Below, piece after piece: positions 9,480 through 63,616 of a stretch of DNA of 64,000 nucleotides. This DNA is from an uncultured Verrucomicrobiota bacterium (GTDB lineage: Bacteria > Verrucomicrobiota > Kiritimatiellia > CAIVKH01). Each line of letters begins with the position of its first letter. Position 1 is the first letter of the stretch. The stretch is from positions 41,384-105,383 of the forward strand of contig CAZCZZ010000003.1 in the NCBI GenBank assembly GCA_964503335.1. The letters run 5' to 3'. A program made the translations under genes and the position numbers. Under the pieces are notes generated by a model. The model saw nothing but the letters and a program-made list of their open reading frames with translations. It made no database searches and had not been told where the DNA came from.

Positions 9480-9489
9480 GGTCTTCTCC

Positions 9490-10716: not shown

Positions 10717-10728
10717 GGGAAGGATCTT

Positions 10729-11586: not shown

Positions 11587-11640
11587 GATCGAAGCAATCC
11601 TCCCCGCCACGGATTGTGTGCCGTGAAAGCACTTCGTCTA

Positions 11641-18666: not shown

Positions 18667-18672
18667 GGTGAC

Positions 18673-46232: not shown

Positions 46233-47189
46233 TTAAATCAGAGGGTGACTTTGCCCTTGGAATCCTACCGATTCCCACACGACATACAGGGGGCGCTTCT
46301 TCGATTCTTCGTAGATCCGGCTGACGTACTGGCCTAGTAATCCGAGTGAGACGAGTTGGATGCCGCCGAGGAAGAGCATGAAGGCCATAATGGAGGTCCA
46401 GCCTGGCACAGACTCGCCCCAGCCGAACATCTTACCGAGCACGACCCGAAGCGCAAAAAGCATGCCGGCGGCGCTTATGAGCAATCCAATGCCCATCATC
46501 CAGCGCAGCGGCGCGCCGGAGAATGATGTCAGCGCGTCCCAGGAGAGCCGGATGAGTTGCCACATCGGATATTTCGTGCGGCCTGAATGACGTGCAGCCC
46601 GATCATAGAGCACGGGGCACTGGCTGAACCCTGTCCAGCACGTGAGCCCGCGCAGGAACCGGTGAAGCTCCCTTATGCCGCGCAGGGCATCGACCACCTT
46701 GCGATCGATCAGGCGGAACTCCCCTGCGTTCATCGGAACCTTGACCCCGGCAAGATGATGGAACAGTCGATAGAACGCAGCGGCCGACGCCTTTTTCAGC
46801 CACGTCTCCCCTGCCCGGCTCCTGCGGACAGCGTAGACGATCTCGTAACCTTCCCGCCATTTCGCGAGTAGTTCGGCGATGACTTCGGGCGGATCCTGCA
46901 GGTCGGAGTCGATGATCACGGCAGCGTCGCCGGATGCATGATCGAGCCCGGCGGTGATACCCATCTGATGTCCGAAGTCGCGTGACAGCCGGATCAATTT
47001 TACGCGCGGGTCTTCCTTGGCCTTGCTCTTGACCCATGGCACGGATCCGTCCGAGCTGCCGTCATCCACAAAAATCAGTTCGAAGTCCTCGGGCTGGGCC
47101 TCCATGACCTTTACGATCCGCTCATACATAAGCGGAAGGTTCTGCTCCTCGTCCAGGAACGGCGATACGATCGTAAGAAGCTTGGCCAT
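46233..47189 (-). CDS. Family 2 glycosyltransferase, polyprenol-phosphate sugar synthase type (Dpm1/ArnC/GtrB-like).
   Basis: LTIVSPFLDEEQNL N-terminus, FVDDGSSDGS and DSDLQDPPE motifs. Two C-terminal TM helices as in ArnC/GtrB. Confidence 0.75.
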   Translation of the reverse strand: MAKLLTIVSPFLDEEQNLPLMYERIVKVMEAQPEDFELIFVDDGSSDGSVPWVKSKAKEDPRVKLIRLSRDFGHQMGITAGLDHASGDAAVIIDSDLQDPPEVIAELLAKWREGYEIVYAVRRSRAGETWLKKASAAAFYRLFHHLAGVKVPMNAGEFRLIDRKVVDALRGIRELHRFLRGLTCWTGFSQCPVLYDRAARHSGRTKYPMWQLIRLSWDALTSFSGAPLRWMMGIGLLISAAGMLFALRVVLGKMFGWGESVPGWTSIMAFMLFLGGIQLVSLGLLGQYVSRIYEESKKRPLYVVWESVGFQGQSHPLI

Positions 47190-47309
47190 AGAGTCCTATA
47201 CCACGTCGGCCGCGACGCTACCAAGCGTGCCGCGAGACGCCAAGCGTGGAGTCACGACGGCTTCCGGCGCTCTTGACCGGACGCGTGAGGCTGGCCATTC
47301 TCTGCCGCC

Positions 47310-48347
47310 ATGTCGAACAGCGTACCTAACGCAAATCCAAGCGTGTCTGTTGTCATTCCCGCCTACGGTTGCGCGCGAACCATCGCAGCAGTCCTGGATG
47401 CCGTGCTCGCACAGACGGTTCAGCCGTTGCAGGTTATCGTGGTCAACGACAGGTCCCCCGACAGCCTTGACGAGGCTGTGAAGCCCTATCTGGACCGGAT
47501 CGAATATGTGACCAATCCGCGCAACTTCGGGCTCGCGAAGACCTGCAACGAGGGCCTGCGCCGGACGAAGGCACCCGTCGTGATGACGCTCCACTCGGAC
47601 TGCATCCTCGATTCGGACTACATCGAGAAACTGCTCAGGCATCTCGACTCCGACCCGAATCTCGGCGCGGCCACCGGACAGTACCTCTTTGAGAACTACG
47701 AATCGCTGGCCCTGAGCGACCGCCTGTTTGCATCCCTCAACCTTCTGCCCGTGGAGACCGACCGGAGCGATTGCTCCGTTCATTATCTGTCCTTCATCGA
47801 AGGGAAGGCCGATGTATTCCGGCGGGAGGCGATCGAGCAATTTGGATTCTTCTCCGAAAACCTTACCCTCACGGCGGAGGATCAGGATCTGTCGGCCAAG
47901 ATGCGACAGAAGGGCTACAAGATCCTCCAGGACGCCAGTTGCAGGTTCCGCGTCATGTTTACGGGAACCAGCGATTCCCTTTGGAAGGTTCTCCGAAAGC
48001 AGAGAACCTATGCCCGCGGGCAAACGTATGTCGTAATCCGTTACGGCCTGGGCATCCTGGGCGACACGACACCGAACCGGAAGTTTCGCGCACGTCACCG
48101 CTTCGGGCAGTTGCTCTTCGCGGCGGTGCTTCCACTCACCATGATCGCTCCCCCTCTCAACCCGTTCTTGTGGTGGCTTCCGCTCGCATGGATCGGACTG
48201 CGGATGATCACGTACGGATTCCTGGCGCACAGGTTCGCGCGATCCGATGTCTTGCTGACGGCTCTATTGGGTCCTGTTGCCGATGTGCTCTATTTCGCTG
48301 GCGCCATTGAAGGCACCGTCAAGACGCTGCTATTCAAGAAGACCTGA
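47310..48347 (+). CDS. Family 2 glycosyltransferase with C-terminal TM helices.
   Basis: VSVVIPAYGCARTI N-terminus, VVNDRSPD DxD-like region. C-terminal hydrophobic segments. Confidence 0.65.
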   Translation: MSNSVPNANPSVSVVIPAYGCARTIAAVLDAVLAQTVQPLQVIVVNDRSPDSLDEAVKPYLDRIEYVTNPRNFGLAKTCNEGLRRTKAPVVMTLHSDCILDSDYIEKLLRHLDSDPNLGAATGQYLFENYESLALSDRLFASLNLLPVETDRSDCSVHYLSFIEGKADVFRREAIEQFGFFSENLTLTAEDQDLSAKMRQKGYKILQDASCRFRVMFTGTSDSLWKVLRKQRTYARGQTYVVIRYGLGILGDTTPNRKFRARHRFGQLLFAAVLPLTMIAPPLNPFLWWLPLAWIGLRMITYGFLAHRFARSDVLLTALLGPVADVLYFAGAIEGTVKTLLFKKT

Positions 48348-48352
48348 AGCGG

Positions 48353-49345
48353 TCAGCCGCCCCAGGACGGCGGCAGCTTCTTTCGGATTTCGATGTTCTT
48401 GAATTCTACTGGTGTCGTCGACCCTACACGCTTCGCCCATTCCGCCATGCGTCCGATGCCTGTTCGCAGATCAACCGGTTGCTGCGCCCCGAAGACCTGC
48501 TTCACCCGCTCGTGGCTGGCGAAGGCATGGACGACTTCGTTGCGCGCGGGAAGATGCGTAATATTCGGCGTCACGCCAAACGCGCGGGCCACTTCCTGCG
48601 CCAGCTCCAGGACGCTGTGCGCCTTGTCCGCACCAACGTTGAAGACATTTTGATAAGACGCTTCGACCAGCGGCGCCCGGGCGATCACCGGCGCGACATC
48701 GTCGACGTGGCTGAAGGCGCGGGTCTGGGCGCCATCCCCGAATACGGACATGGCTTCGCCCTTCATCACCTGGTTCATGAAGATGCCAATCACATTGCGA
48801 TACCGGTCCGCGAGATTCTGTCGCTCGCCATACACGTTGTGCGGACGGAAGATCACGTGGTTCAGGCCGAACATGTGATGTGCCGCCTTGAGATCGAGTT
48901 CGACGGAGTATTTTGCGATTCCGTACGGATCCTCGGGTTGCGGAACAAGCGACTCCGTCATCGGCAACTGGTTTGTGCCGTACACCGCGATGGAACTCGT
49001 GAACACGAAGCATTTCACATCGTGCAGGACGCTCTGATTGATGAGGAGAATCGACCCGAGGACATTGTTCTCGTAGTTGAAGTGCCGGATAAAGTGGCTC
49101 AAGCCTTCCGCGGCATACGCGGCGAGATGGTACACGTAGTCGAAGCGACCGTCGGCCCACAGCGATGCGACGAAGCCTTTGTCGGCCACGGATCCTTGAC
49201 GAAAATCCACGCCGGCTGGCACGTTGCGAGCAAAGCCGCCGGACAGGTCGTCGACACCGACCACTGCGAAGCCCTGCTTCAGGCAGTGCTCCGCCACGTG
49301 CGACCCGATAAAGCCACCGACTCCAGTCACCAATACACGCTTCAT
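48353..49345 (-). CDS. NAD-dependent sugar epimerase/dehydratase (SDR family, GalE-like).
   Basis: VLVTGVGGFIGSHV Rossmann motif and YGIAK catalytic YxxxK. Confidence 0.75.
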   Translation of the reverse strand: MKRVLVTGVGGFIGSHVAEHCLKQGFAVVGVDDLSGGFARNVPAGVDFRQGSVADKGFVASLWADGRFDYVYHLAAYAAEGLSHFIRHFNYENNVLGSILLINQSVLHDVKCFVFTSSIAVYGTNQLPMTESLVPQPEDPYGIAKYSVELDLKAAHHMFGLNHVIFRPHNVYGERQNLADRYRNVIGIFMNQVMKGEAMSVFGDGAQTRAFSHVDDVAPVIARAPLVEASYQNVFNVGADKAHSVLELAQEVARAFGVTPNITHLPARNEVVHAFASHERVKQVFGAQQPVDLRTGIGRMAEWAKRVGSTTPVEFKNIEIRKKLPPSWGG

Positions 49346-49349
49346 GTTG

Positions 49350-51386
49350 CTAATCCTTCGCGGCGGGCAAGAGCTCCGCCGATTCGACCATCAAGGCCGT
49401 CTGTTCGTTCCTGACAAGATCCCTGAGCGTGAATTCCCGTTCGCCGGGTTCGAGGCGAAAAGGGCCGACGGTGTGTTCCATCGGGCGACCCGCGGTAAAT
49501 TCCACGGTCTGCTGTCCGTCCAGGTTTACGATCTTGTTGCCACCCACCGCGACGGCGCGGAGACGAAGCTGCACGTCCCTGGCCACACCGGTTGTATTGA
49601 TCAGCCGCAAGACGCCGACGTCCTCCAGCTGGCGGTAGTCGTCGAAGCGACCGGTTTGCCGCCACGGCTTCCAGTAGCCCCAGCCCGAGCCATAGAGCAC
49701 GGGCATGGGACGACCGCTAGCGACTGCATTTCGCATGGCGTTCGATGCTGAATTGAAGTGAATGTTCACAAGGAGGCGATTCGTCGTCGCCGTGAAATAG
49801 TCCTCGCGATTGGCCAGTCCGTAGTCGCGCAACTTGATGCCCGCGGTGTTCGATATGACGATATGCTGGTCGAAGAATTCGTTCGGCCAATCCCATCGCC
49901 CTACCCCGGGCTTCTCCCAGTAGTTGCGCGCAATCTCCATGTAGGCCGCATCCGGGTACTTTGTGAAGAAGGCTTTCGCCGTATCGCGCCACTTGTTGGC
50001 CACGAATTGGTCGTAGGGTTCGTCGGGTACGGTGAATGTGACAAAGACATTCGTAGGAGGATAGAGAGCGAACTCATTCCACGGCTCGTACCAGCGATCA
50101 ACGAGAACCAGCGTGCCTTTCGGGAGGTTCCTGTCGAGCCACGACACGATGTCCTTGTATGGCGTCGGCTTGCCCCGAAGCTGCGTGGACAACCATGCGG
50201 GATACGTCAACAAACCCGCGATGACAGCCACCATCGAGGCTTGCAGCATGACGGGCGAACGCGAAACGCGGCGGGAAACGGCAAGCGAAAGCTCCCCCAG
50301 CCCTACGACGATCAGGCAAAGGTAGAGCGGAAGATACGCCAGCACATAGCGCGAATAGAATCCCGCGCCGGTCGCTTCGCGCGACAGCAGGAACGAACCC
50401 ATGCCGAGGGCCATGACAACGGGCACGACCAGAAGCCATGGACGCTCTCGACGCTGCCGTATGACGCCGACAAGGCCGAGCACCAGGAGCGCGGCGGCGA
50501 GTCCCCCGCGCAGCCAGCCCTTGCCAAGGAAGAACGCCGTCCCGGCCGTCTTGAGCATCTCGACAAGCGTGGGTCCTCCGCCGAAGACGCGGCTGGCCCA
50601 CGCCCTCATTTCAGCGGAAGAACTCTTCATCAGCTGGGATACGCCCCAGTCCGCAAAGAGCACCGGCAGTCCGATGATGGCGGTCGCAGCGATCATCCCG
50701 ACCACCCGTCCCCTGACGACCGGGACCTTCATGGCCTGCCAGAGCGAAGCGCCTGCACTGACGGTCACAAGTACAAAGGCACAGAACCAGCCGGACGGCT
50801 GGCTGTAGATCATCAGGAACATGCCGGCGAGATGCGCGGCGATCCGTGTCCCCGAAATCCGGTCTTCGCGCAGCCACGCCCCCCGCAACGCATCAAGCGC
50901 GGCGATCGGCAGCAGGAAGGAGCCCAAGACCATGGGTGGATAGAAATAGGCCTCGCGCGCTGTCATGATGAGGTAAGGACCGAAGGCGGCGAGTGCCGCC
51001 AGGGTGAACGCGCCGCGAAAGCCGGATAGTCTCCGACCCAGGCACCATGCGGCAGCAACCGACGCGATGCCCCAGCACGCCGCGGGAAGTCGCATCGAGA
51101 GATGCCCGGGCTCCATGCCCGTCACCTGGACAAAGAGTTTGGTGAACGCGAGCGGGAAAGGCAGCTGGGCCGATATGCCCATGAGCTCGAGCCAGTGTCC
51201 GAAAATATACGTCCAGTTCGGCGTCGATTTGCAGATGTTGAGGAACAGGTATGTATCCGCGCGGAAGGCGGGCTCGGCAAGATGGTACAGCCGGAAGAAT
51301 GCCGCCACGGCAAGCAGAACTGCAAGCACACCCCACTCCATGCGGGTGGACATCTGTTCTTCACTTTTCGACAACTCAGGTGGCAT
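49350..51386 (-). CDS. GT-C fold glycosyltransferase, ArnT/PMT (GT39/GT83)-like polytopic membrane protein.
   Basis: 678 aa with more than 11 TM helices. N-terminal loop FRADTYLF....PPM region typical of family-39/83 enzymes. C-terminal soluble domain. Its ATG overlaps the stop of the upstream methyltransferase (ATGA). Confidence 0.6.
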   Translation of the reverse strand: MPPELSKSEEQMSTRMEWGVLAVLLAVAAFFRLYHLAEPAFRADTYLFLNICKSTPNWTYIFGHWLELMGISAQLPFPLAFTKLFVQVTGMEPGHLSMRLPAACWGIASVAAAWCLGRRLSGFRGAFTLAALAAFGPYLIMTAREAYFYPPMVLGSFLLPIAALDALRGAWLREDRISGTRIAAHLAGMFLMIYSQPSGWFCAFVLVTVSAGASLWQAMKVPVVRGRVVGMIAATAIIGLPVLFADWGVSQLMKSSSAEMRAWASRVFGGGPTLVEMLKTAGTAFFLGKGWLRGGLAAALLVLGLVGVIRQRRERPWLLVVPVVMALGMGSFLLSREATGAGFYSRYVLAYLPLYLCLIVVGLGELSLAVSRRVSRSPVMLQASMVAVIAGLLTYPAWLSTQLRGKPTPYKDIVSWLDRNLPKGTLVLVDRWYEPWNEFALYPPTNVFVTFTVPDEPYDQFVANKWRDTAKAFFTKYPDAAYMEIARNYWEKPGVGRWDWPNEFFDQHIVISNTAGIKLRDYGLANREDYFTATTNRLLVNIHFNSASNAMRNAVASGRPMPVLYGSGWGYWKPWRQTGRFDDYRQLEDVGVLRLINTTGVARDVQLRLRAVAVGGNKIVNLDGQQTVEFTAGRPMEHTVGPFRLEPGEREFTLRDLVRNEQTALMVESAELLPAAKD

Positions 51387-52267
51387 CAGGTTTTCCGGAG
51401 GATGAGGCTGCGTGTGCCGTCAGGATACAGATGCGACCAGATCATCGCCAATGGTAGAAACGCGAGAAAGAGAGGGTGACGATATCGGCCCGTCCAGCGG
51501 ATGGAGATGCTGGCCGACATCGTATTGGGAAAGGGCACAAACGAAACCTTATCAAGTCTCAGCCCGGCTTTCACCATGAGGGGTGCGAGCTGGCTTTCCG
51601 TCGGGAAGCTGATGTGCCGCGGTGCATCGAAGCCGTGCCACTTTCCGCCGAAAATCCGGAACTCCCTGCTGTCAAGGTTCGGCAGCACAGCGTAGAGCAT
51701 TCCGCCCGGCTTCAGGAGATCGCCGACAAGCCGTAGCGTTCCAGCCAAATCAGTCAAGTGCTCCATGACAAAGTGCATGGTAATCACATCCAGCTTCCCA
51801 TAAAGGTCCGCGCGCAAGTCCTCGAAGCGGTGATAAACAGGAAACCGGACCCTGCCCGCGACAGCTTTCGCAAGTTCCTCGGTGGGTTCATAGCCATAGG
51901 CTCTGCCCACGCGACCCCGCGCGTGGTCGAGGAACCAGCCATCCCCGCACCCGTAGTCGAGAATCGCCATGTCCGGCCGCAGTCGATCGAGATCGAAGTA
52001 GACCGGCCGCAAAACAATCCGCCGGGTGAATTCATGCAACCACGACTTTGAGGCATGCACCGGATATGCCGCGTAGAAGGGACTCACATCCAAAGGCAGC
52101 GGGTGCTGCTGGACCAGACCGCAGCTATCGCATTTCGCATAGCTCGCCAGCAAACCCGTGGCCAGATAGTAGTCCGCTACGGTGGAGAGGAACGAAACGC
52201 CGGCGTTTGAACCGCAGCAGAGACATCGAAACTCGACTCCTGAAGGATTTGAAACTACCGCAGCCAT
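51386..52267 (-). CDS. Class I SAM-dependent methyltransferase with N-terminal CxxC...CxxC zinc-ribbon.
   Basis: FRCLCCGS...CDSCG, then ILDYGCGDGWF SAM motif and LKPGGMLYAV. The ORF track extends to 52366; ATG candidates at 52291 and 52267. Confidence 0.65.
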   Translation of the reverse strand: MAAVVSNPSGVEFRCLCCGSNAGVSFLSTVADYYLATGLLASYAKCDSCGLVQQHPLPLDVSPFYAAYPVHASKSWLHEFTRRIVLRPVYFDLDRLRPDMAILDYGCGDGWFLDHARGRVGRAYGYEPTEELAKAVAGRVRFPVYHRFEDLRADLYGKLDVITMHFVMEHLTDLAGTLRLVGDLLKPGGMLYAVLPNLDSREFRIFGGKWHGFDAPRHISFPTESQLAPLMVKAGLRLDKVSFVPFPNTMSASISIRWTGRYRHPLFLAFLPLAMIWSHLYPDGTRSLILRKT

Positions 52268-52313
52268 TGTTGACAGATCCCCATATCGCATTCTCCTGTA
52301 GCAAGATGCGGTG

Positions 52314-52853
52314 TCAATTGGCAAGCGACTGCGCGACAACGCAGGCACCCATTTCGCGGCGAGCAATGGTCTCAGCCCTCACTCGAGCAATGTCAATGAC
52401 TCGACCCGGGTGCGCGTAGGACTCGATCAGGGTTCTCCGAAAGACTGTGACGCCCAGATAGAGACAATTGGCCAGCCTATTGTCCAAGTCCCCGGCGTGG
52501 CGAACAACGAGGCGGCCTTCGATACAGGTGCGGCTGCGTCCAGGATCTCGATCACGTGGTGCGACAGCCATGAGGGCTTGGACACCAAGATCGCGAAACT
52601 TCCTGACGATGGGATACGGGTCGATATCCCCTGCCCATTCATCATCCAGCACGACGAACTCGTGGTACAGGAACGGCAATGCCTCTATCAGGTCTCGCGC
52701 AACTGCGGTCGAGCCGAAGCCGCGACCGACATGCAGGATATCACTTGAAGCTGCTGGGATTGAGGCCCGGCGACGAATCATGTGCCGAGAAGAAGACTCC
52801 AAGCCATCTGAGAGCGTGTGCAGGATGACAATCTGTATGGGCTCGTCGGTCAT
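52314..52853 (-). CDS. Hypothetical protein (~180 aa), no family assigned.
   Basis: ORF with ATG at 52853. Sits within the glycosylation island. May be partly artefactual given the GC content. Confidence 0.3.
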   Translation of the reverse strand: MTDEPIQIVILHTLSDGLESSSRHMIRRRASIPAASSDILHVGRGFGSTAVARDLIEALPFLYHEFVVLDDEWAGDIDPYPIVRKFRDLGVQALMAVAPRDRDPGRSRTCIEGRLVVRHAGDLDNRLANCLYLGVTVFRRTLIESYAHPGRVIDIARVRAETIARREMGACVVAQSLAN

Positions 52854-52952
52854 TTGGAGTCGTGAGAATAGCGACAAACTGAATTGTCTCAACGTGGATG
52901 TTCATGGCATCGTTTAGCTGCTATTCCACACCAAGACGGGGCAAGCAATTAA

Positions 52953-54587: not shown

Positions 54588-54593
54588 CAGCCG

Positions 54594-56651: not shown

Positions 56652-56738
56652 CGTGGGGAGACGGCCAAGCCGTGTCAATGTAGGTTTGTCATCGAAAGAG
56701 ATTGCGTCAATCGCAAGCCCGCCTATTCTCCCACGTCG

Positions 56739-57461
56739 ATGAATGCCCCCAACGTTTGGCCCAAGACATTTCCTCCGCTTACGGACGAGCAGAAACGCAT
56801 CAGCGACGACTTCATGAAGCACTGGCATGAAGTCCTGCCGAAGAGCTACAGCGCGGCCGACCACTTCAATCACACCTACGCAATACGCAATGCCCCCCGC
56901 ACTTTCCTCAGCACGCTGGAGATCGGCGCCGGCCTTGGCGAACACATCACGTATGAGAACCTGAGCGCCGAGCAGGCGAAGAACTACTATGCGGTCGACA
57001 TACGCGCCAACATGATCGAAGAGCTGAAGCGCCGGCACCCTCATGTCAACGCGACGCTGGCGGATTGCCAGGCGCGGATGCCATTCCCCGACGGACACTT
57101 CGACAGGGTGCTCGCCATCCATGTGCTGGAGCATCTCCCGAACCTGCCCCTTGCGATTCAAGAAGCTTATCGCCTCTGCAGGAAGGACGGCGGGGTCTTT
57201 TCAGTTGTCATACCCTGCGAAGGCGGGCTCGCGTATGGCATCGCGCGCAGGATTTCGGCGCAGAGGATTTTTGAGAAACGCTACAAACAACCCTACAAAT
57301 GGTTCATCGAGCGCGAACATTTGAGCAGGCCGGATGAGATCATTACGGAACTTGAGAAGTACTTTGAGATCACCCACAAGGCGCTGTTCCCTCTGGTGGT
57401 CCCGATCATCACGCTGAACCTCTTCATCGGTTTGACGCTGAAGCCTAAGAAACTCGACTAG
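56739..57461 (+). CDS. Class I SAM-dependent methyltransferase.
   Basis: LEIGAGLGEH SAM motif, VLAIHVLEHLP and KDGGVF. ATG at 56739 (81 codons into the ORF track entry). Confidence 0.7.
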   Translation: MNAPNVWPKTFPPLTDEQKRISDDFMKHWHEVLPKSYSAADHFNHTYAIRNAPRTFLSTLEIGAGLGEHITYENLSAEQAKNYYAVDIRANMIEELKRRHPHVNATLADCQARMPFPDGHFDRVLAIHVLEHLPNLPLAIQEAYRLCRKDGGVFSVVIPCEGGLAYGIARRISAQRIFEKRYKQPYKWFIEREHLSRPDEIITELEKYFEITHKALFPLVVPIITLNLFIGLTLKPKKLD

Positions 57462-58216
57462 AGCTGGATCGGACGTATTCGCGCCGGCAGCAGGAGCCGC
57501 TGTCGCCACTTGATGGCCAGCAGCTCCATGAAGATTCGCAGCGTTCTCGCGAAATTGTAGGTGATTCGGGAATCCTCATCGTGCGTCCAGCGCACCGGCA
57601 CTTCCGCAACACGCAACCCTGACTTCACTGCAAGGACAAGCATCTCGACGTCGAAGATCGCGGTGAACCCCGTCATGGGCCTGAACACCTGCTCCGCGGC
57701 CACAGCCGTCACCGCCTTGAACCCGCATTGCGTATCGGCGATTCCCGTCAAGACCAGCAGCCGGCTGCACAGTCCGAATAGGTCACCAGCCATGCGTCGG
57801 GCACCGCTCTGGGCGGCCTCGATCTTCGCACCACCGATCTTCCGGGAGCCGATCACCACATCAGCCCTTCCCTCCTTCATCAAAGCCCAGAATCGATCCG
57901 CTTCCTCGATGGGTGTCGCGCTGTCGGCGTCCATGAAAATGCGGTACCTGCCCGAGGCCGCGAGCATACCTTCGCGAACCGCAAAGCCCTTCCCCTGATT
58001 CGTTCTGCAGTCGATCACGCGGAGGTACGGCATCGCCTTCGCCTGCCCGCGTGCCCAGTCCCCGGTGCCATCCGTACTGCCGTTGTCAGCCACGATCACT
58101 TCGGCCTGCACACCCCTCTCCGCAAGGTAGGCCTTGATCGAGTCGAGCGTGCCCGGAAGCCGCTGACGCTCGTTAAAGCAGGGTATGACGATCGAGTATT
58201 CGGGAGTATCAGGCAT
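57458..58216 (-). CDS. Family 2 glycosyltransferase, Dpm1/GtrB-like (soluble, no C-terminal TM).
   Basis: YSIVIPCFNE N-terminus, VADNGSTDGT and DADSATP DxD motifs. Confidence 0.75.
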   Translation of the reverse strand: MPDTPEYSIVIPCFNERQRLPGTLDSIKAYLAERGVQAEVIVADNGSTDGTGDWARGQAKAMPYLRVIDCRTNQGKGFAVREGMLAASGRYRIFMDADSATPIEEADRFWALMKEGRADVVIGSRKIGGAKIEAAQSGARRMAGDLFGLCSRLLVLTGIADTQCGFKAVTAVAAEQVFRPMTGFTAIFDVEMLVLAVKSGLRVAEVPVRWTHDEDSRITYNFARTLRIFMELLAIKWRQRLLLPARIRPIQL

Positions 58217-58241
58217 GCAATCCCTCGGGAGGCGATAGCGG

Positions 58242-58823
58242 TCAGGGCCTCGTTGGCGTAGAGGGATGCCAGCGTCGTCGCAGCGCCTCCGTCACGACGT
58301 GCATGAGCATGGCGTGGACAGCTTCCGACTGGCACATATCGTTGAGCGGAACGTTCACGCCGATGTGCGCCATCTTGTGTAAAGCGCCGCCACCGAAACC
58401 TGTGATGCCCGCCAGCACAAGGCCCTGATCAAGGGCGTATTGTGCCGCCCGGATTACGTTGGGACTATTCCCCGAGCCGCTGATAGCAATGAGCACATCG
58501 CCGGGGCGGGAGAACTGGCGCAACTGGAATTCAAAAATGCGATCATAACCCAGGTCATTCGCAATGGCGGTAATGAACGATGTGTTGTCGGTGAGGCTCA
58601 ACACGCGAAAGCGTTTGCGATCCGTGTCCTCCAGGCATCCTTTGCAGAGATCTTCGGCAAAGTGCGATGAGTTCGACGCGCTTCCGCCATTTCCGATCAC
58701 AAAGACAAACCGATCCTCACGATAGGCCTTGTCGAGCGCATCGATCAATTTGACCAGAGGCTCTACCGGTGTCGCCCTCGCCGCGGCGGATATGCCATCG
58801 AGATACTGCCGAATCATTTCCAT
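58242..58823 (-). CDS. gmhA: D-sedoheptulose-7-phosphate isomerase (SIS domain).
   Basis: FVIGNGGSASNSSHFAEDL and AISGSGNSPNV motifs typical of GmhA. ATG at 58823. Confidence 0.8.
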   Translation of the reverse strand: MEMIRQYLDGISAAARATPVEPLVKLIDALDKAYREDRFVFVIGNGGSASNSSHFAEDLCKGCLEDTDRKRFRVLSLTDNTSFITAIANDLGYDRIFEFQLRQFSRPGDVLIAISGSGNSPNVIRAAQYALDQGLVLAGITGFGGGALHKMAHIGVNVPLNDMCQSEAVHAMLMHVVTEALRRRWHPSTPTRP

Positions 58824-59824
58824 TCGTAACCCTCCACATTGAAAATCACCCTGCTGCCGAAACGTTCCAGGAAGAAGGGCATCTCTCGATACTCCGCCAT
58901 GGCCTTGCGCAAGTCCGATTTCCTGTTCCGCGCACAATACGTCATGAGAAATCCGCCGCCGCCCGCGCCGCAGATCTTGCAGCCCAGTGCGCCTCCACTG
59001 GCAGCCTGATCCACCATCGTGTCGATTTCGGGCCTGGAAATGCCTCCAGCGAGGCCCTTCTTCAACTCCCAGCTCCGGCGTAACACCAGGCCGATCGTAT
59101 CCAGGTCACCTCGCCTCACGGCGTCGCGAACTTCGTTGGCCATGGCTTTCAACTGGTCGAGTTCGGCGCGTTTCTCGTCCGACCGCCGAGTTTGTTCCTT
59201 CAGGATCACATCCGCCTGGCGGGTGATGTTCGTATAGAAGAGGAGGAGCCGCGCCCCGAGTTCCTGACGCTTGGCCCCGGTGAGCGGAAGCTCTTCGTTC
59301 GTCACACTTCCATCGGGCAGGAACTGGTAGTACCTCAGGCCGCCATAGGCTGCGATATACTGGTCCTGCTTCCCTATCGGTTTGCCGCAAACCTCAATTT
59401 CGATCTTGCACGCCTCTGCCGCCAATTGCTCCGCCGGTGCCTGCACGCCACGGTAGGTGTAGAAGGCATTCAACAGCCCGACGGTCAGGCTGCTCGATGA
59501 GCCGAGGCCTGATCCTTCGGATGGGATGTCAGCCATGATTGCGATCTCAACACCGCGTTCCACACCCGTCATGCGCATCGATTCCCGCACGAGCGCATGT
59601 TGGATTTCGTCCACGCTGTCGACGATCTCCTTGCTCGAATAGCTGATATAGATCTTCTCGTCGAAGCGCCGGTTCAGGATGACGTAGACATACTTGTCGA
59701 TTGCCGATCCCACGACGGCTCCGCCTGCCTGGTTGTAGTATGCTGCGAGATCCGTGCCGCCGCCCGCCAGGCTGACGCGCAAGGGTGTTTGTGTGATCAA
59801 CATGTCGTTCCCAATCCAGGCCAT
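58814..59824 (-). CDS. GHMP-family sugar kinase, HddA-like (D-glycero-alpha-D-manno-heptose-7-phosphate kinase candidate).
   Basis: PLRVSLAGGGTD N-terminus and GHMP motif PSEGSGLGSSSSLTV. Sits between gmhA and a nucleotidyltransferase. Alternative start at 59803. Confidence 0.65.
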   Translation of the reverse strand: MAWIGNDMLITQTPLRVSLAGGGTDLAAYYNQAGGAVVGSAIDKYVYVILNRRFDEKIYISYSSKEIVDSVDEIQHALVRESMRMTGVERGVEIAIMADIPSEGSGLGSSSSLTVGLLNAFYTYRGVQAPAEQLAAEACKIEIEVCGKPIGKQDQYIAAYGGLRYYQFLPDGSVTNEELPLTGAKRQELGARLLLFYTNITRQADVILKEQTRRSDEKRAELDQLKAMANEVRDAVRRGDLDTIGLVLRRSWELKKGLAGGISRPEIDTMVDQAASGGALGCKICGAGGGGFLMTYCARNRKSDLRKAMAEYREMPFFLERFGSRVIFNVEGYEWK

Positions 59825-60504
59825 TCACGCTGGGCCTTTTCCAGACGCTCCGGCGTGCCGATATCCGTGTAAAATGACCGGATAGGATAGCCAAACATGC
59901 GACCTGCGAGCAAGGGGAGAACATCGAAGCCGAAATCGAGGAAGTCGCGCTGCGGTGTGACATCAAAGAGTCCCTGATTCGCAACGTACAGCCCCCCGTT
60001 CGCCAACCGCCCCTTCGGCTTCGCAGGCTTCTCGACGAAGGAGAGGACGCGACCATCCGCGTCGACCTCCGCGATGCCGCATTGCTCCGGATACTCTGCT
60101 TCGAACAGTCCCATCGTAAAGAAGGCGTCCTTTGCGCGATGAAACCGGATCAAGCCGCCGAGATCCATGTCGGTCAGGTTGTCGGCATAGGCCACGAGGA
60201 AGTCGGGTTCGCCCCTCACAAAATCGCGATTCGCCCAGACTGTGCCCGCGCTTCCAATCAAGGTTTCTTCGTGAAAGAGCGTCACGCGAACGCCCGGAAC
60301 CGGGTCCGCTTTAACGAAAGCGCGAACGGCTTGGGGCAAGTGATGCGTATTGATAAGGACGTCCGTGATTCCCGCGCGCCGCATCAACTCGAGCCAGATC
60401 CCCAACAGAGGTACACCTTTGAACGGAACGAGGCATTTGGGTGTGTGGTCGGTGAGCGGCCGCAGCCGGGAACCCACCCCCGCGGCTAGCAGGTAGGCCT
60501 TCAT
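59797..60504 (-). CDS. Sugar-phosphate nucleotidyltransferase, HddC-like (heptose-1-phosphate guanylyltransferase candidate).
   Basis: MKAYLLAAGVGSRLRPLT nucleotidyltransferase motif. 235 aa. Operon context with gmhA, hddA-like and gmhB. Confidence 0.65.
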   Translation of the reverse strand: MKAYLLAAGVGSRLRPLTDHTPKCLVPFKGVPLLGIWLELMRRAGITDVLINTHHLPQAVRAFVKADPVPGVRVTLFHEETLIGSAGTVWANRDFVRGEPDFLVAYADNLTDMDLGGLIRFHRAKDAFFTMGLFEAEYPEQCGIAEVDADGRVLSFVEKPAKPKGRLANGGLYVANQGLFDVTPQRDFLDFGFDVLPLLAGRMFGYPIRSFYTDIGTPERLEKAQREWPGLGTTC

Positions 60505-61613
60505 GGCGATCCGACGCTGCGCACCACGTTCAGGGCCTTCATGCGCTGTTCGGCATAGGCCAGGATGTCTTCCACGTCCGTTTGCGCACGCAGGTACTCC
60601 GCGTATTCCCGGACGCTATCGACCGGAGTCCGCGTCGGTTTCCAGCCCAGCGACTCCAGCGCTGAAATGTCAGAAACAATATGCCGCGTGTCACCAAAGC
60701 GGTAGGCACCGGGCAGGCTGGGCTCGCCCTTCCGCTCAAAAACCTCCATGACGATGCGAGCGAACTCCATGACGGTCCATGGCTTGCCACCGCCCACGTT
60801 GAAAGCCCGATAGTCAGCTCGATCGTCCTCGAGCACTCGCAGATTCGCGTCCACGACATCATGAATGTTCACGAAGTCGCGGATCTGTCGTCCGTCTTCA
60901 TAGACGACAGGGAGGCGGTCGAAAAAGCAGCTCAAGCTGAAGATGCGGCACGCACCCGAGTAGGCATTGTAGAAGGACTGTCGCGGCCCCTGAACAATCG
61001 AATAGCGCATGGCCACGCTGGGGATGCTGTACCGACGACCGATGTTCAGCGTGATCAACTCCTGACTGACCTTGCTAAGCCCGTACTGGTTCTGAGGGTT
61101 GCTCACGGACTCGGGCGTCGGTTGCCATTGGGCAGGAAGCCCCGTCTCATCGCATATCTCCCACTTCCCCTCGCGCAATTGCCGCTCGCTGCGAATATTC
61201 GGGGTGAAATACCCACCGTTCGCGCCGCGATACAGTCCCTCTCCAGCCACGGCCTGTGAAGATGCCACGATCACTTTGCGTATCGGCAGCTTGTCCTCAA
61301 CAATCAGCTCGTAAAGCAGCGCCGTACCCACCGCATTGACGTGAAAGAACGTGCTGAAGTCCGGGAGGTAATCCTGGTATGCGGCGAAATTGTACACGGC
61401 ATCGACACCGTGCAGCATCCGGCGCAGCGTGTCCTTGTCGCGAATGTCCCCCTCAACGAACTCGACATCTTTCGGCAGGTAGGTGGGCTTGCCCTTTAAG
61501 TGGACGGGCTTCTGCAGGCAATCGAGGATGCGAACCGCGTGACCGCGGCGCATGAGCGCGTCTGTGGTGTGCGATCCGATGAAGCCGGCTCCGCCTATAA
61601 CAAGTACCTTCAC
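60501..61613 (-). CDS. NAD-dependent epimerase/dehydratase (SDR family). Candidate nucleotide-heptose modifying enzyme.
   Basis: VLVIGGAGFIGSH Rossmann motif and YGLSK YxxxK motif. 370 aa. Confidence 0.7.
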   Translation of the reverse strand: MKVLVIGGAGFIGSHTTDALMRRGHAVRILDCLQKPVHLKGKPTYLPKDVEFVEGDIRDKDTLRRMLHGVDAVYNFAAYQDYLPDFSTFFHVNAVGTALLYELIVEDKLPIRKVIVASSQAVAGEGLYRGANGGYFTPNIRSERQLREGKWEICDETGLPAQWQPTPESVSNPQNQYGLSKVSQELITLNIGRRYSIPSVAMRYSIVQGPRQSFYNAYSGACRIFSLSCFFDRLPVVYEDGRQIRDFVNIHDVVDANLRVLEDDRADYRAFNVGGGKPWTVMEFARIVMEVFERKGEPSLPGAYRFGDTRHIVSDISALESLGWKPTRTPVDSVREYAEYLRAQTDVEDILAYAEQRMKALNVVRSVGSP

Positions 61614-61624
61614 GAGTCACTCCT

Positions 61625-62149
61625 CTAAAGTTGCCGCCGAAGTAGTTCGGGTAGATCGTCCATCGATTCAATCCGGAATTCAGCTGTACTTTCCGGATGC
61701 CCAGTATTCACCAGAACAGTCCTGCAGCCCGCGCGTTTCCCCGCCAGCACATCGGTTTCATGGTCGCCGATCATCCACGACTTCGACAAGTCGAGGTGAT
61801 GCTTCTGGGCGGCTTTGAGGATCATGCCGGGATTTGGCTTGCGATCCGGGTGATCCTTTTCGTCCACGGTGCAGGAGTAGATATCGAGGAGGAGCAGGTC
61901 GTGACGCGCCAGCTCCGCGAGCAGGTTGCTGTGGATCAGGTCCAGCGTCGCCATTGTCATGATTCCACGGCCGACGCCGCGCTGGTTGGTAATGATCGCC
62001 GCGGCATAGCCCTTCTCGTTGGCGACGCGGAGCGACTCCAGGAACGCGGGGATGAGGTGGAAGTCTTCCCAACGTTCCACATAGCCCGGACCGGGTGAAA
62101 CATTGACGATTCCGTCGCGATCAAAAAAGACACACGGCCTCTTGTGCAT
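61625..62149 (-). CDS. gmhB: D-glycero-D-manno-heptose-1,7-bisphosphate 7-phosphatase (HAD-IIIA).
   Basis: VFFDRDGIVN HAD motif I, ITNQ motif II and MIGD motif. 174 aa. Confidence 0.75.
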   Translation of the reverse strand: MHKRPCVFFDRDGIVNVSPGPGYVERWEDFHLIPAFLESLRVANEKGYAAAIITNQRGVGRGIMTMATLDLIHSNLLAELARHDLLLLDIYSCTVDEKDHPDRKPNPGMILKAAQKHHLDLSKSWMIGDHETDVLAGKRAGCRTVLVNTGHPESTAEFRIESMDDLPELLRRQL

Positions 62150-62166
62150 GGCAATACGCCGCCGGA

Positions 62167-62766
62167 CTAGGGAGGACCACCCGCGGTTGTCGAAGCCGCG
62201 TCATTGAGTTTCCGGTATTTCCAGAATCGACCTACGCCGACAGTAGCGCCGATCCAGAAGCCCTTGTCGGTCAAGGTATAGGTCCCGTCGCTCTGCGTGT
62301 AACCCATGTCATGCTTCGCACTCCCGTCTTCCTTCGTCTTCGCGGCGAGACCGATGCCGCCCCCGCAACCCCATCCCGAATCGAGGAACTGCTGCATGCT
62401 CTCCACGGTATTGAAGATGATCAGGTTCCGGTACACTTGGAAACCAAGGGCCAATCCGATGTCGAATTCAAACATCTTCATGTACGTGCTCTTGCCGGTC
62501 TTGTTGTTCACGACCACGCCGTAACCCTTGCGCGTGCTGATGTTGAGCGATAGTTGTCGCGACCGGAACACCGCGTAGCCCGGTGCCTTCGCGATGAGCT
62601 TCTCCAGCTCCGGATTGTCGCGCTTGATCGAGACCAGCGTGTTGTTCCGCATCGAATCCACAAATGCCCGCTTGGCTTCCGGCGTCCCCCCCTTCGGCGC
62701 CATACACCCCGTTGTAAGACTCACGAGCGCCACGACCATCACCAGCGAACGAATGACCTTCTTCAT
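62167..62766 (-). CDS. Lipoprotein, possibly SYLF/DUF500 (Ysc84-like lipid-binding) domain.
   Basis: Lipobox LTTGC. Gly-rich core IGLALGFQVY...GWGCGGGIGLAAK resembles SYLF domain proteins. Tentative. Confidence 0.4.
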   Translation of the reverse strand: MKKVIRSLVMVVALVSLTTGCMAPKGGTPEAKRAFVDSMRNNTLVSIKRDNPELEKLIAKAPGYAVFRSRQLSLNISTRKGYGVVVNNKTGKSTYMKMFEFDIGLALGFQVYRNLIIFNTVESMQQFLDSGWGCGGGIGLAAKTKEDGSAKHDMGYTQSDGTYTLTDKGFWIGATVGVGRFWKYRKLNDAASTTAGGPP

Positions 62767-62908
62767 GCCCCTCCATCTACCACAGATACTCCCACGTGGG
62801 AACTCCCTCGTGCGTCAATCTCAAATTGGAAATCCAAAATCCAAAATCTCACACGCCCCTTGACTCCGCCGCCGCTTCACGGTGAGCTATCGCATTTCCT
62901 CAAGGGGC

Positions 62909-63616
62909 ATGAAAACAAGCATCGTCATACCGCTGTACAACGAAGCCGGCAATGTCGCGCCGCTCGCGCAGGAACTGTCTGCCGTGCTTCCGCAGCTCGG
63001 CGAGGCCGAGGCCATCCTGGTGGACGATGGAAGCCGCGACACAACTTGGGCCGAGATCGAAAAGGCGGCGCAAAAGCATCCTGGCATCCGCGGCATCCGG
63101 TGCGAGCAGAACGGCGGACAATCCTCCGCCATGCTGATCGGCCTGCGCGCCGCCACAGGCGATGTGCTTGTGACCATGGACGGCGACCTGCAGAACAATC
63201 CGGCCGATATCCCGAAAGTCGTCGCCCTCCTCGACCACGTGGATGTCGCCTGCGGCTACCGCGCAAAGCGACGCGATACCTGGTCACGCCGCGTGGCCTC
63301 GCGGATCGGCAACGGCATCCGCAACGTGGTCACAAACGACGGCCTCCGCGACACGGGCTGCAGCCTCAAGGCCTTTCATCGGAAATGCCTCGACGATCTC
63401 CCCTCGCTGAACGGAACCCACCGCTTCATGGGTGCCTACTTCCGCCTGAACGGACGCAGCATCGAGCAGATCGCCGTCGACCACCGCGCGCGGACGCACG
63501 GCGTCTCCAAATACACCAACCTCAAACGCCTCCCCCGCACCGCCTTCGACCTCATCGGCTTCCTCTGGTACCGCAGCCGCGTCCTGAAGCCGATCAAGAC
63601 CACCACGACGCGCTGA
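62909..63616 (+). CDS. Family 2 glycosyltransferase, polyprenol-phosphate glycosyltransferase type (GtrB/Dpm1-like).
   Basis: TSIVIPLYNEAGNV N-terminus, LVDDGSRD and DGDLQNNP motifs. The ORF track starts at 62882. Confidence 0.75.
   Translation: MKTSIVIPLYNEAGNVAPLAQELSAVLPQLGEAEAILVDDGSRDTTWAEIEKAAQKHPGIRGIRCEQNGGQSSAMLIGLRAATGDVLVTMDGDLQNNPADIPKVVALLDHVDVACGYRAKRRDTWSRRVASRIGNGIRNVVTNDGLRDTGCSLKAFHRKCLDDLPSLNGTHRFMGAYFRLNGRSIEQIAVDHRARTHGVSKYTNLKRLPRTAFDLIGFLWYRSRVLKPIKTTTTR

Follow-up and report, generated by a model that had tools for sequence, protein, structure and literature searches.

The interval studied covers positions 46233-63616 of the window, by which we mean the whole 64,000-nt stretch of DNA that was analysed. 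GC content in the interval is 0.58-0.61, the same as in the remainder of the window, so the interval is not an island in composition. The gene content of the predicted glycosylation 'island' was largely recovered. The interval and the features discussed beside it contain the following genes (conserved loci in relatives are identified by L numbers).

35810..38128, + strand: DUF2961/GH172-like putative lipoprotein, 772 aa (Pfam DUF2961, 189 bits)
38132..38800: third methyltransferase, outside the interval
38986..45939, - strand: giant secreted protein, 2317 aa, with Laminin_G_3, four Beta_helix regions, PKD and choice-of-anchor Q domains
46233..47189, - strand: GT2a, GtrB/ArnC/PgfS-type polyprenyl-phosphate sugar synthase, 318 aa
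47310..48347, + strand: GT2b, Glyco_tranf_2_3/PgaC/MftF-like GT2, 345 aa, two C-terminal hydrophobic segments
48353..49345, - strand: SDR330, extended SDR, NDP-sugar epimerase/dehydratase-like (GalE-like; Pfam Epimerase, 156 bits)
49350..51386, - strand: GT-C1, polytopic GT-C-fold glycosyltransferase, 678 aa
51386..52267, - strand: MT_ZnR, SAM methyltransferase (Methyltransf_23) whose N-terminus carries a CxxC...CxxC motif
52314..52853, - strand: orf179, degenerate relic of a second nucleotidyltransferase
52953..54587, + strand: SGNH/GDSL hydrolase with C-terminal TPRs, 544 aa (Pfam Lipase_GDSL_2, 60.5 bits, and TPR)
54594..56651, - strand: GT-C2, polytopic GT-C-fold glycosyltransferase, 685 aa
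56739..57461, + strand: MT240, SAM methyltransferase (Methyltransf_11), membrane-anchored by a TM helix at the C-terminus
57458..58216, - strand: GT2c, soluble DPMS/ALG5-like GT2, 252 aa, last gene of the heptose operon
58242..58823, - strand: GmhA-like sedoheptulose-7-P isomerase, 193 aa (Pfam SIS_2)
58814..59824, - strand: HddA-like GHMP kinase (D-glycero-D-manno-heptose-7-P 1-kinase type), 336 aa
59797..60504, - strand: sugar-1-phosphate nucleotidyltransferase, 235 aa (Pfam NTP_transferase, 117.8 bits)
60501..61613, - strand: SDR370, extended SDR (GalE-like) with a ~40-aa insertion
61625..62149, - strand: GmhB-like HAD-IIIA heptose-1,7-bisphosphate 7-phosphatase, 174 aa
62167..62766, - strand: SYLF/Ysc84-type lipoprotein, 199 aa, between GT2d and gmhB
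62909..63616, + strand: GT2d, 235 aa, an ArnC-like GT2 catalytic domain that lacks TM helices; transcribed divergently from the heptose operon

The predicted SGNH hydrolase and two SDRs are present, as is the 2317-aa beta-helix protein, while two of the three methyltransferases proposed lie within the interval and the third outside it. Four GT2 genes were found (Pfam Glycos_transf_2, E 1e-25 to 1e-30), but only three are of the Dpm1/ArnC/GtrB-like type originally assigned to all of them; this assignment was rejected for GT2b, which best matches PgaC/MftF and chondroitin-synthase-type GT2s. GT2a matches NCBIfam PgfS over its full length (254.7 bits) as well as ArnC (168 bits), and carries two C-terminal TM helices (233-251 and 267-285). 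For GT2d the strongest PDB match is ArnC (8.7e-33), followed by DPMS and GtrB, with a score of 125.8 bits against NCBIfam ArnC; genes 65-69% identical to it occur in L009 and L014.

The two GT-C proteins had been placed in the ArnT/PMT class, which is valid at the level of fold only, as neither has an above-threshold family match: GT-C1 matches no Pfam or NCBIfam model, and GT-C2 has a sub-threshold match to Pfam PMT_2 (20.9 bits vs a cutoff of 26.1). The AF2 model of GT-C1 (pLDDT 93.4) recovers AglB (8.9e-9), PglB, STT3, ArnT (5e-7), Emb and Aft in Foldseek searches, and the AlphaFold model of GT-C2 (pLDDT ~92) likewise predicts a GT-C fold. The two paralogues have an S-R-E-A-Y-x-Y motif in common, and in GT-C2 an invariant D54-E55 pair stands where the first juxtamembrane helix begins. 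The C-terminus of GT-C1 is modelled as an alpha/beta subdomain and a CBM-like beta-sandwich (Foldseek matches to CBM61/6/35/36/29), and a CBM6/35/36-like sandwich is found at the C-terminus of both proteins. These domains favour a glycan over a protein as acceptor.

Module A (GT2a, GT2b, SDR330, the Zn-ribbon methyltransferase MT_ZnR and GT-C1) is a second, independently conserved unit with the same logic as module B, whose supply genes form the heptose operon. Homologues of GT-C1 with 58-62% identity occur in Kiritimatiellia MAGs. The GT2 beside GT-C1-like genes in L023 and L024 shares 63% and 61% identity with GT2a, and GT2b is also a conserved GT-C1 neighbour (51-54% identity in L007/L012 and L023). 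Adjacency of MT_ZnR and GT-C1 is kept in L007/L011/L012/L013 (59-61% identity) and L023 (49%); the coding overlap between the two was correctly foreseen, but its junction is ACC TGATG CCA, a 1-nt overlap by which the two genes are translationally coupled, and not ATGA. SDR330 scores 149.7 bits against NCBIfam GalE, under the cutoff. No Pfam family matches orf179, of which residues 55-173 (the C-terminal two-thirds) match NTP_transferase genes of L012, L015, L009 and L024 by tblastn (E 1e-8 to 1e-13). A homologue of the DUF2961/GH172-like gene (48% identical) lies directly downstream of a GT-C1-like gene in L022, where the called coordinates abut or overlap, and this gene may be an extension of the locus.

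The heptose operon has the predicted order gmhB-SDR-NTP_transferase-GHMP kinase-gmhA-GT2, with overlaps or gaps of at most 25 nt throughout. All four pathway enzymes score under the NCBIfam equivalog cutoffs. The best NCBIfam matches of the GmhA-like protein are all phosphoheptose isomerases (118 bits), and the GmhB-like protein scores 127 bits against PRK08942 (cutoff 178) and 115 bits against the TIGR01656 domain (cutoff 84). Assignment of the kinase as HddA-like held up: HddA is its best NCBIfam match (E 4e-47, 161 bits full-length; cutoff 600), and its top four PDB matches are the heptose-7-P kinases 4n3o, 4usm, 4usk and 3k85 (~1e-40), with fucokinase far weaker (1e-22). The nucleotidyltransferase, predicted to be HddC-like, does belong to the NTP_transferase family but resembles Man-1-P guanylyltransferases (NCBIfam 111.6 bits; PDB 7d72, 1.6e-26) more than HddC (57.9 bits; PDB 6jq8, 1.3e-15); judged by these matches, it is probably a guanylyltransferase. 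Counterparts of SDR370 in L014, L025 and L026 share 54-71% identity with it, and its metagenomic relatives of at least 48% identity are linked to GmhA, GHMP and NTP genes in every contig that yielded a match; it is specific to the heptose cassette and presumably modifies NDP-heptose. The SYLF/Ysc84-type gene is missing between GT2d and gmhB in L014, and because its place is not kept in relatives its membership of the system is doubtful. As a separate RfaE-domain-I kinase adjoins kdsB at 17917-19677 in the window, the operon route is probably distinct from the LPS-core ADP-heptose pathway, which appears to be encoded elsewhere.

GT2c is a candidate polyprenyl-phosphate heptose synthase. Its best PDB match is the P. 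furiosus Dol-P-Man synthase (8.5e-13), with ArnC next, and its NCBIfam matches are AglJ, Dol-P-hexose transferase and PpgS. The members of its nearest clade in L025 and L026 (49-57% identity) also end heptose operons, so that GT2c is the tightly spaced terminal gene in three differently arranged loci. This clade is a separate cluster of 14 sequences, apart from the large ALG5-like family; neither of the two generic members of that family that were checked is linked to heptose genes.

GT-C2 homologues (33-46% identity) occur at 11 distinct loci in MAGs of Kiritimatiellia, Lentisphaerota and Verrucomicrobiota, and at nine of these loci genes for a GmhA-like protein and a GHMP kinase lie within 10 kb. 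Most of these nine also carry NTP and HAD genes, and several carry a gene for transaldolase, the producer of sedoheptulose-7-P; the other two relatives (L010, L016) have no heptose genes nearby. In most GT-C2 relatives the adjacent lipid-sugar synthase is not GT2c but a GtrB-like GT2, with three oxidoreductases after it. The SGNH/TPR gene is a conserved neighbour (49-57% identity in L011, L012 and L013), and a gene 69% identical to MT240 occurs in L013. In the window MT240 is divergent from GT-C2 and, as predicted, convergent with GT2c (4-nt overlap, 57458-57461). The proposed association between heptose genes and GT-C proteins recurs with polytopic proteins unrelated to those of the window: L025 has the cassette SDR370-NTP-GHMP-GmhA-GT2c (71/56/71/56/51% identity) next to a polytopic protein of the PMT_2 family. 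In L026 the cassette is followed by a 4-nt-coupled polytopic protein of 533 aa, in which a GDE motif comes after TM1; a TMEM260_N+TPR protein is next in line.

The combination of a complete heptose-activation pathway, lipid-carrier sugar synthases and two uncharacterised, periplasm-facing GT-C proteins suggests that an envelope glycan may be heptosylated outside the cytoplasm by an undescribed route. The interval ORFs that were scanned include no phosphoglycosyltransferase of the initiating kind, no Wzx/Wzy and no ABC exporter, and the locus therefore resembles a modification system rather than one for polymer assembly. We put at roughly 0.5 the probability that this chromosomal locus serves a PVC bacterium of Kiritimatiellia type to modify an envelope glycan by means of two lipid-carrier glycosylation modules, with heptose passing through a lipid carrier to GT-C2. 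The analysis establishes gene content, folds, assignments to families and conserved gene order; the donor, the acceptor and the steps described next are inferred. Sedoheptulose-7-P would be converted by GmhA, the HddA-type kinase, GmhB and the guanylyltransferase-like enzyme to NDP-D-glycero-alpha-D-manno-heptose, probably a GDP-sugar, which SDR370 could alter, for example by epimerisation. GT2c would load the heptose onto polyprenyl phosphate, and a flippase encoded outside the locus, which holds no candidate for this role, would flip the product for use by GT-C2 in the periplasm. The D54/E55 pair and the CBM-like domain point to an acceptor that may be a glycan (LPS, capsule or some other polysaccharide, for instance) and not a protein. 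MT240 and the SGNH/TPR protein, which has an N-terminal anchor (TM segment 11-29) and is presumably periplasmic, may tailor the lipid-linked sugar or the glycan by methylation or acylation.

A possible but less probable explanation is that the heptose operon and the GT-C modules are biochemically separate, with NDP-heptose feeding cytoplasmic Leloir transferases (GT2b or others) for capsule, O-antigen or S-layer glycan, and the GT2/GT-C pairs adding hexose branches (e.g. glucose from Und-P-Glc), much as Gtr systems do in serotype conversion. Glycan genes tend to cluster in any case, and module A lacks heptose genes in L023. In another lineage (L029, L030, L032) the cassette is coupled to a GT4 of the Leloir type, which indicates that it is a generic NDP-heptose supply whose consumer depends on context. 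At ~45% identity, the wider GT2c family bears the annotation dolichyl-phosphate beta-glucosyltransferase, so UDP-glucose is still a plausible donor; however, the GT2c sub-clade is distinct from that family and repeatedly terminates heptose operons. Linkage between heptose genes and GT-C2 that holds down to 33% identity, and the lack of assembly and export genes among the interval ORFs scanned, also argue against separate modules.

We consider it unlikely that the GT-C proteins are PMT-like O-glycosyltransferases that heptosylate the 2317-aa protein in the periplasm, as originally proposed. The giant gene ends only 294 bp from GT2a, the GT-C DE motif is the same as in PMTs, and L026 encodes a TMEM260-like protein, from a family known for protein O-mannosylation. 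Beta-helix proteins also occur near the heptose cassette in L029 and, among GT-C1-type loci, in L024 only, but such proteins are common in PVC genomes. The co-occurrence check revealed no conserved linkage, with no homologue of the giant protein within 10 kb at any of the 11 GT-C2 relatives; the protein has no Ser/Thr-rich linker (>=40% over 40 aa), and both GT-Cs lack a MIR domain and carry CBM-like domains instead. Membership of the giant protein in the glycosylation system is thus not supported, and we regard it as a neighbour only. Similarly improbable is an ArnT-like system in which sugar on lipid A phosphates or Kdo changes surface charge. GT2a and GT2d are ArnC-like, and kdsB in the window implies that the organism makes Kdo-containing LPS, but the expectation that these are not ordinary ArnT enzymes was borne out: neither GT-C matches an ArnT model (NCBIfam, Pfam), and no arnA/arnB/arnD-like gene was found among the scanned window ORFs. 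The ArnT match target (541 aa) is without the large C-terminal alpha/beta and CBM-like domains present in GT-C2 (685 aa), and heptose, being neutral, would not serve the charge masking that defines Arn systems. If the lipid-carrier modification reading is true, the locus would represent three-component periplasmic glycosylation with heptose as the lipid-carried sugar.

The locus at 46233-63616 sets a heptose-activation operon beside two polytopic transferases of the GT-C fold, and its gene map as originally predicted was largely matched by the ORF listing and HMM scans. The genes are as follows:

46233-47189, minus strand: GT2a, 318 aa, PgfS/ArnC match over full length, two C-terminal TM helices
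47310-48347, plus strand: GT2b, a GT2 of the PgaC/MftF/chondroitin-synthase-like type, not Dpm1-like
48353-49345, minus strand: SDR330, an extended, GalE-like SDR
49350-51386, minus strand: GT-C#1, a polytopic transferase with GT-C fold
51386-52267, minus strand: MT_ZnR, a methyltransferase with a Zn-ribbon-like N-terminus
52314-52853, minus strand: orf179, a 179-aa ORF between MT_ZnR and the SGNH gene, a probable degenerate nucleotidyltransferase relic
52953-54587, plus strand: SGNH/TPR, a membrane-anchored SGNH hydrolase with TPRs
54594-56651, minus strand: GT-C#2, a polytopic transferase with GT-C fold
56739-57461, plus strand: MT240, a methyltransferase with a C-terminal TM helix
62149 down to 57458, minus strand: heptose operon, gmhB-SDR370-nucleotidyltransferase-GHMP kinase-gmhA-GT2c
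62167-62766, minus strand: SYLF, a lipoprotein
62909-63616, plus strand: GT2d, a GT2 with an ArnC-like catalytic domain and without TM helices

All four predicted GT2 genes are present, but one of them (GT2b) is not of the Dpm1 type; likewise, two of the three methyltransferases lie inside the interval and the third (38132-38800) outside it. The MT_ZnR/GT-C#1 junction, taken to be ATGA-coupled, is TGATG with a 1-nt overlap. Nor is the locus an island in the compositional sense, as GC content is uniform across the window and the locus is chromosomal. Horizontal acquisition was rejected because GC content and skew do not depart from those elsewhere in the window and housekeeping genes lie on either side; the surroundings include the dcw cluster, kdsB, recO and glycogen genes, with ligA just past the window end. 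Part of the dcw cell-division/peptidoglycan cluster (ftsZ, ftsA, ftsQ, ddl, murC and murG) lies at 8256-15072 on the minus strand, and the window therefore represents core chromosome of a peptidoglycan-making PVC bacterium. A scan for promoters and terminators returned sites no more numerous than in shuffled controls.

Several features adjoin the locus. Downstream of GT2d, just beyond the window end (1987-4400 of L001, the extended locus), genes for a 408-aa and a 396-aa protein with weak squalene-hopene-cyclase/prenyltransferase alpha-alpha-toroid repeats are followed by VanZ and ligA; in L009, a relative's locus, the GT2d homologue is followed instead by an HTTM/VKGC-like polytopic protein. 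A DUF2961/GH172-like putative lipoprotein is encoded at 35810-38128 (plus strand), upstream of the gene for the giant beta-helix protein. Its homologue in L022 (12025-14367, 48% identical) lies directly downstream of a GT-C#1-like gene, the called coordinates abutting or overlapping, and L022 additionally has a second GH172-like gene and a GHMP kinase (40% identical). It is possible that the glycan locus reaches as far as 35810, with a glycoside hydrolase-like component in the periplasm. The C-terminal helix of MT240 (aa 216-234) is strongly hydrophobic, which suggests a site of action at the membrane for this methyltransferase, perhaps with a lipid-linked sugar as its substrate.

The predicted heptose pathway was borne out, at the level of enzyme class, for the kinase, GmhA and GmhB. 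We found that HddA is the best NCBIfam model for the kinase (E = 4e-47, full length; 161 bits, below the cutoff of 600) and that its four best PDB matches are heptose-7-P kinases (~1e-40 versus 1e-22 for fucokinase, or eighteen orders of magnitude), placing it with the GHMP-family heptose-7-P 1-kinases rather than the PfkB/RfaE kinases. GmhA (a SIS_2 isomerase) and GmhB (a HAD-IIIA phosphatase), encoded in one operon, are the top models for their genes: GmhA models are the top four matches (up to 118 bits) and GmhB models reach 127 bits, in both cases below equivalog cutoffs, and for GmhB the TIGR01656 domain cutoff is passed. The nucleotidyltransferase is clearly an NTP_transferase member, nearer to Man-1-P guanylyltransferases (111.6 bits; 7d72, 1.6e-26) than to HddC (57.9 bits against a cutoff of 300; Yersinia HddC 6jq8, 1.3e-15), so that GDP is plausible as the nucleotide. 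Scores below the equivalog cutoffs for all four enzymes are what a deep PVC lineage would lead one to expect.

Enzymes of these four classes (GmhA, HddA, GmhB and, as the nucleotidyltransferase, HddC) make up the GDP-D-glycero-alpha-D-manno-heptose pathway, which serves the Aneurinibacillus S-layer glycan, the Campylobacter capsule, Burkholderia (WcbL) and Yersinia 6-deoxyheptose. As in that pathway they share one operon, the closest solved relatives of the kinase are of HddA/WcbL type, and a tailoring SDR is encoded within the operon. The locus differs, besides its lower scores and guanylyltransferase-like nucleotidyltransferase, in that SDR370 resembles GalE, with a 40-aa insertion, rather than DmhA/GMD, and in that a DPMS-like GT2 apparently takes the place of a Leloir heptosyltransferase as consumer. 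Elsewhere in the window, a PfkB kinase that corresponds to RfaE domain I by itself (342.5 bits, cutoff 345), which we take to be of the D-glycero-beta-D-manno-heptose-7-P kinase type, adjoins kdsB (CMP-Kdo synthetase, 304.6 bits) at 17917-19677 on the minus strand. Given this pairing, an ADP-heptose route to the LPS core appears to be present, separate from the GHMP (alpha-anomer) route of the locus.

The proposal that the two GT-C proteins are of the ArnT/PMT class was upheld at the level of fold but not of family. Neither matches a Pfam or NCBIfam family above threshold (GT-C#2 reaches 20.9 of the 26.1 bits required by PMT_2, and GT-C#1 has no hit), a few homologues do have precomputed PF13231 or PF02366 hits, and sequence searches of both against the PDB gave no meaningful match, so structure prediction was needed. 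The two are paralogues over their full length (E = 1e-16). AlphaFold (AF2) models reached a pLDDT of 91.9 for GT-C#2 (33-homologue alignment) and 93.4 for GT-C#1 (37-homologue alignment), and Foldseek was run on both; the figures per known protein in the fold comparison were Pmt4 25.7, Pmt2 25.0, AglB 24.9, ALG12 24.7, STT3B 23.5 and ArnT 23.4. D54-E55 of GT-C#2, where the first juxtamembrane helix begins, is invariant, D44 of GT-C#1 is nearly invariant among homologues, and an S-R-E-A-Y-x-Y motif is common to both paralogues. Models, fold searches and conservation together place both proteins in the GT-C fold, the first extracytoplasmic loop carrying the presumed catalytic acid.

An acidic DE pair opening this loop is also seen in PMT (GT39, with Ppm1/Dpm1) and ArnC/ArnT (GT83), and the donor synthases of the locus are likewise DPMS/ArnC-like: GT2a has the profile of a polyprenyl-phosphate sugar synthase (PgfS 254.7 bits, ArnC 168 bits, two TM helices), GT2d matches ArnC at 8.7e-33 and GT2c matches DPMS at 8.5e-13. 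The models contain no counterpart of the luminal MIR domain of eukaryotic PMTs, nor is anything inserted between their TM helices; what they have in addition lies at the C-terminus, a module of alpha/beta fold plus a CBM-like beta-sandwich that is specific to this Kiritimatiellia/Lentisphaerota GT-C family. Membership of the GT39 PMTs was rejected on the sub-threshold score and the missing MIR domain. ArnT-type lipid A modification was rejected as family membership, since no ArnT NCBIfam or Pfam model matched either GT-C and no arnA/arnB/arnD-like gene turned up in the scanned ORFs of the window. Emb, AftD and GT136 ORF12, all GT-Cs that modify glycans, are known to carry CBMs (PMC11127046), and the CBM-like tails favour a glycan as acceptor.

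The pairing of a polytopic GT-C with a polyprenyl-phosphate sugar synthase of the GT2 type is also found in the Gtr systems of Salmonella and Shigella (GtrA/GtrB/GtrC) and in the Citrobacter Und-P-pentofuranose/MATE/GT136 system (Kelly et al. 2024, PMC11127046). GT2a shares the architecture of GtrB, the extracytoplasmic CBM-like domain resembles that of GT136 ORF12 and Emb/AftD, and cytoplasmic epimerase/oxidoreductase genes lie alongside. In contrast to these three-component systems, the locus has GT-Cs that pass no Pfam or NCBIfam threshold, is wired to a heptose-activation operon and not to UDP-hexose or PRPP, and consists of two modules with methyltransferases and an SGNH/TPR protein. It also carries no flippase gene: a search for GtrA/SMR, ArnE/F or MATE types found no ORF below 260 aa with at least three hydrophobic segments in 36000-64000, and none was seen among the called genes of four relatives (L007, L009, L025 and L026).

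Homologues of GT-C#2 (~45) and GT-C#1 (~70) come, where a taxon is named, from Kiritimatiellia, Lentisphaerota or Verrucomicrobiota MAGs; most are unnamed, 'hypothetical' or 'GT39 family'. When the locus proteins were compared by tblastn with 11 distinct relatives' loci (+/-10 kb), GmhA-like and GHMP kinase genes were found near the GT-C#2 homologue in nine, usually with nucleotidyltransferase (NTP) and HAD genes, and this linkage persists down to 33% GT-C identity. Module A (GT2a, GT2b, MT_ZnR and GT-C#1) is conserved by itself, without heptose genes, in L023. The ancestral layout appears to have been GT2(GtrB-like)-SDR-SDR-GFO/IDH/MocA-GT-C#2-SGNH-SIS-TAL-GHMP-UGDH-NTP-HAD-MT-GT-C#1-GT2b, of which the window appears to hold a compacted derivative with the kinase now in a second, compact operon. 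orf179 has no Pfam hit and matches, by tblastn, the C-terminal two-thirds of relatives' NTP_transferase genes preceding HAD-MT-GT-C#1; it is probably the decayed NTP gene of the ancestral second heptose block. Several relatives have a transaldolase and a UDP-Glc/GDP-Man dehydrogenase within the heptose block (transaldolase/FSA and dehydrogenase at 14429-17534 of L012; likewise L007, L008 and L009), which suggests a dedicated supply of sedoheptulose-7-P and, possibly, oxidation of NDP-heptose to hepturonic acid.

Two further arrangements were observed among these relatives. In L007, L009 and L011-L014, though not in the window, the GtrB-like GT2 and the GT-C#2 homologue are separated by a conserved trio, namely an extended SDR, a classical SDR (adh_short) and a GFO/IDH/MocA oxidoreductase, which recalls the DprE1/E2-type epimerisation of a lipid-linked sugar. 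L014 (1560-6754) contains both heptose blocks, the compact one without a kinase and with GT2c reduced to a 49-residue N-terminal fragment apparently fused upstream of a GtrB-like GT2, and could represent a step in the evolution between the two layouts.

A metagenome scan with an SDR370 alignment was also carried out; its GAGFIGSH pattern is generic, and of the 80 loci only six were informative, the majority being unrelated SDRs on short contigs. The compact operon is present in L025 (SDR370 71%, NTP 56%, kinase 71%, GmhA 56% and GT2c 51% identical), adjoining a PMT_2-family polytopic protein, and in L026, as NTP-kinase-GmhA-SDR370-GT2c, to which the gene for a polytopic 533-aa protein is coupled by 4 nt; this protein has a GDE motif after TM1, and a TMEM260_N+TPR protein is encoded further on. 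The order at 8741-14133 of L026 is the 533-aa protein, another DPMS-like GT2 and the 963-aa TMEM260_N+TPR protein, whose human relative is a protein O-mannosyltransferase. GT2c falls in a sub-clade of 14 sequences, with a mean identity of 54% to one another and 40% to other members of their family, a very large one annotated as 'dolichyl-phosphate beta-glucosyltransferase', and heptose neighbours were absent at the two generic family members examined. Residue 186 is Ala in this heptose-linked sub-clade and Phe in >80% of the generic ALG5-like family, and C13 and V121 each replace Ala; the three are possible determinants of a larger sugar pocket.

Consumers of the heptose nevertheless vary. In L029, L030 and L032, from another lineage, the cassette contains a GT4 Leloir enzyme instead of GT2c (GmhB-GmhA-GT4 (Glycos_transf_1) and a Beta_helix/NosD-like protein precede SDR370-NTP-kinase, at 88-6768 of L029), indicating that modified NDP-heptose is used by Leloir enzymes too. 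The cassette is a supply module with a variable consumer, which in the window is apparently GT2c by operon position. The main rival explanation, that heptose enters a Leloir step while the GT-Cs move hexoses, has the GT4-containing cassettes on its side, and the position of GT2c and the GT-C#2-heptose linkage on the other; we regard it as rather unlikely. The giant protein (38986-45939, minus strand), with its Laminin_G_3, four beta-helix regions, PKD and choice-of-anchor Q domains, had been put forward as the target, and beta-helix neighbours do occur, though only beside a single distant relative of GT-C#1 (L024) and a single heptose cassette (L029). This idea is left weak: there is no homologue of the giant protein within 10 kb of any GT-C#2 relative, the protein has no Ser/Thr-rich linkers and the GT-Cs carry CBM-like domains, which together make its glycosylation by the GT-Cs quite improbable. 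To our knowledge, the BAHTs (AAH/TibC) are the only route putting heptose on beta-helix adhesins, conceptually what had been put forward for the giant protein. BAHTs are cytoplasmic, soluble and ADP-heptose-dependent, whereas the candidates in the locus are periplasm-facing GT-Cs with a kinase of the alpha-anomer (GHMP) type; with no BAHT-like gene among the locus ORFs scanned, membership of that family was rejected.

The boldest reading, to which we give a probability of roughly 0.4, is that GT2c-type enzymes make polyprenyl-phosphate heptose; GT-C#2 and the unrelated PMT_2-type (L025) and TMEM260-like (L026) polytopic proteins would then be periplasmic heptosyltransferases. In the mechanism that we propose, each step beyond the assignment of enzyme classes is an inference. 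NDP-heptose would be made and tailored by SDR370, placed on polyprenyl phosphate by GT2c and carried to the periplasmic face by an unlinked flippase. GT-C#2 would then transfer it to an envelope glycan, with GT-C#1 perhaps doing likewise with its own GT2a-made donor, with methylation by MT240 and MT_ZnR and acylation or deacylation by the SGNH/TPR protein. It is operon membership and conserved synteny that point to heptose as the lipid-linked sugar; the key chemistry is argued from guilt by association, in a locus that is conserved and coherent.

Literature searches on Und-P-, polyprenyl-P- and dolichyl-P-heptose found no paper in the library searched that ties heptose to a lipid-phosphate carrier or a GT-C system, and the outcome was the same for periplasmic heptosylation, for heptose together with GtrB and for GT39 together with hddA/hddC. 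All characterised bacterial heptosylation that we know of, in LPS core, capsules, S-layer glycans and autotransporter adhesins, is cytoplasmic and uses soluble ADP- or GDP-heptose, and the polyprenyl-phosphate donors known to us are hexoses, Ara4N, GalA and pentofuranoses. The architecture follows the known three-component/Gtr-Arn-PMT logic (PMC11127046); what is new is the heptose-operon wiring, the presence of two GT-C families that are as yet uncharacterised and have CBM-like tails, and the lack of a linked flippase. The five-gene cassette SDR370-NTP-HddA-GmhA-GT2c is small enough for a direct heterologous-expression test. If true, the pathway would include the first lipid-phosphate heptose donor, adding a new sugar class to the polyprenyl-phosphate donors, and would be the first for extracytoplasmic heptosylation, recurring in several uncultured lineages and founding new GT families, with at least two new GT-C families defined. 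Kiritimatiellia and Lentisphaerota are a little-studied, polysaccharide-degrading PVC lineage, and such a system would give a first handle on their envelope glycan chemistry.
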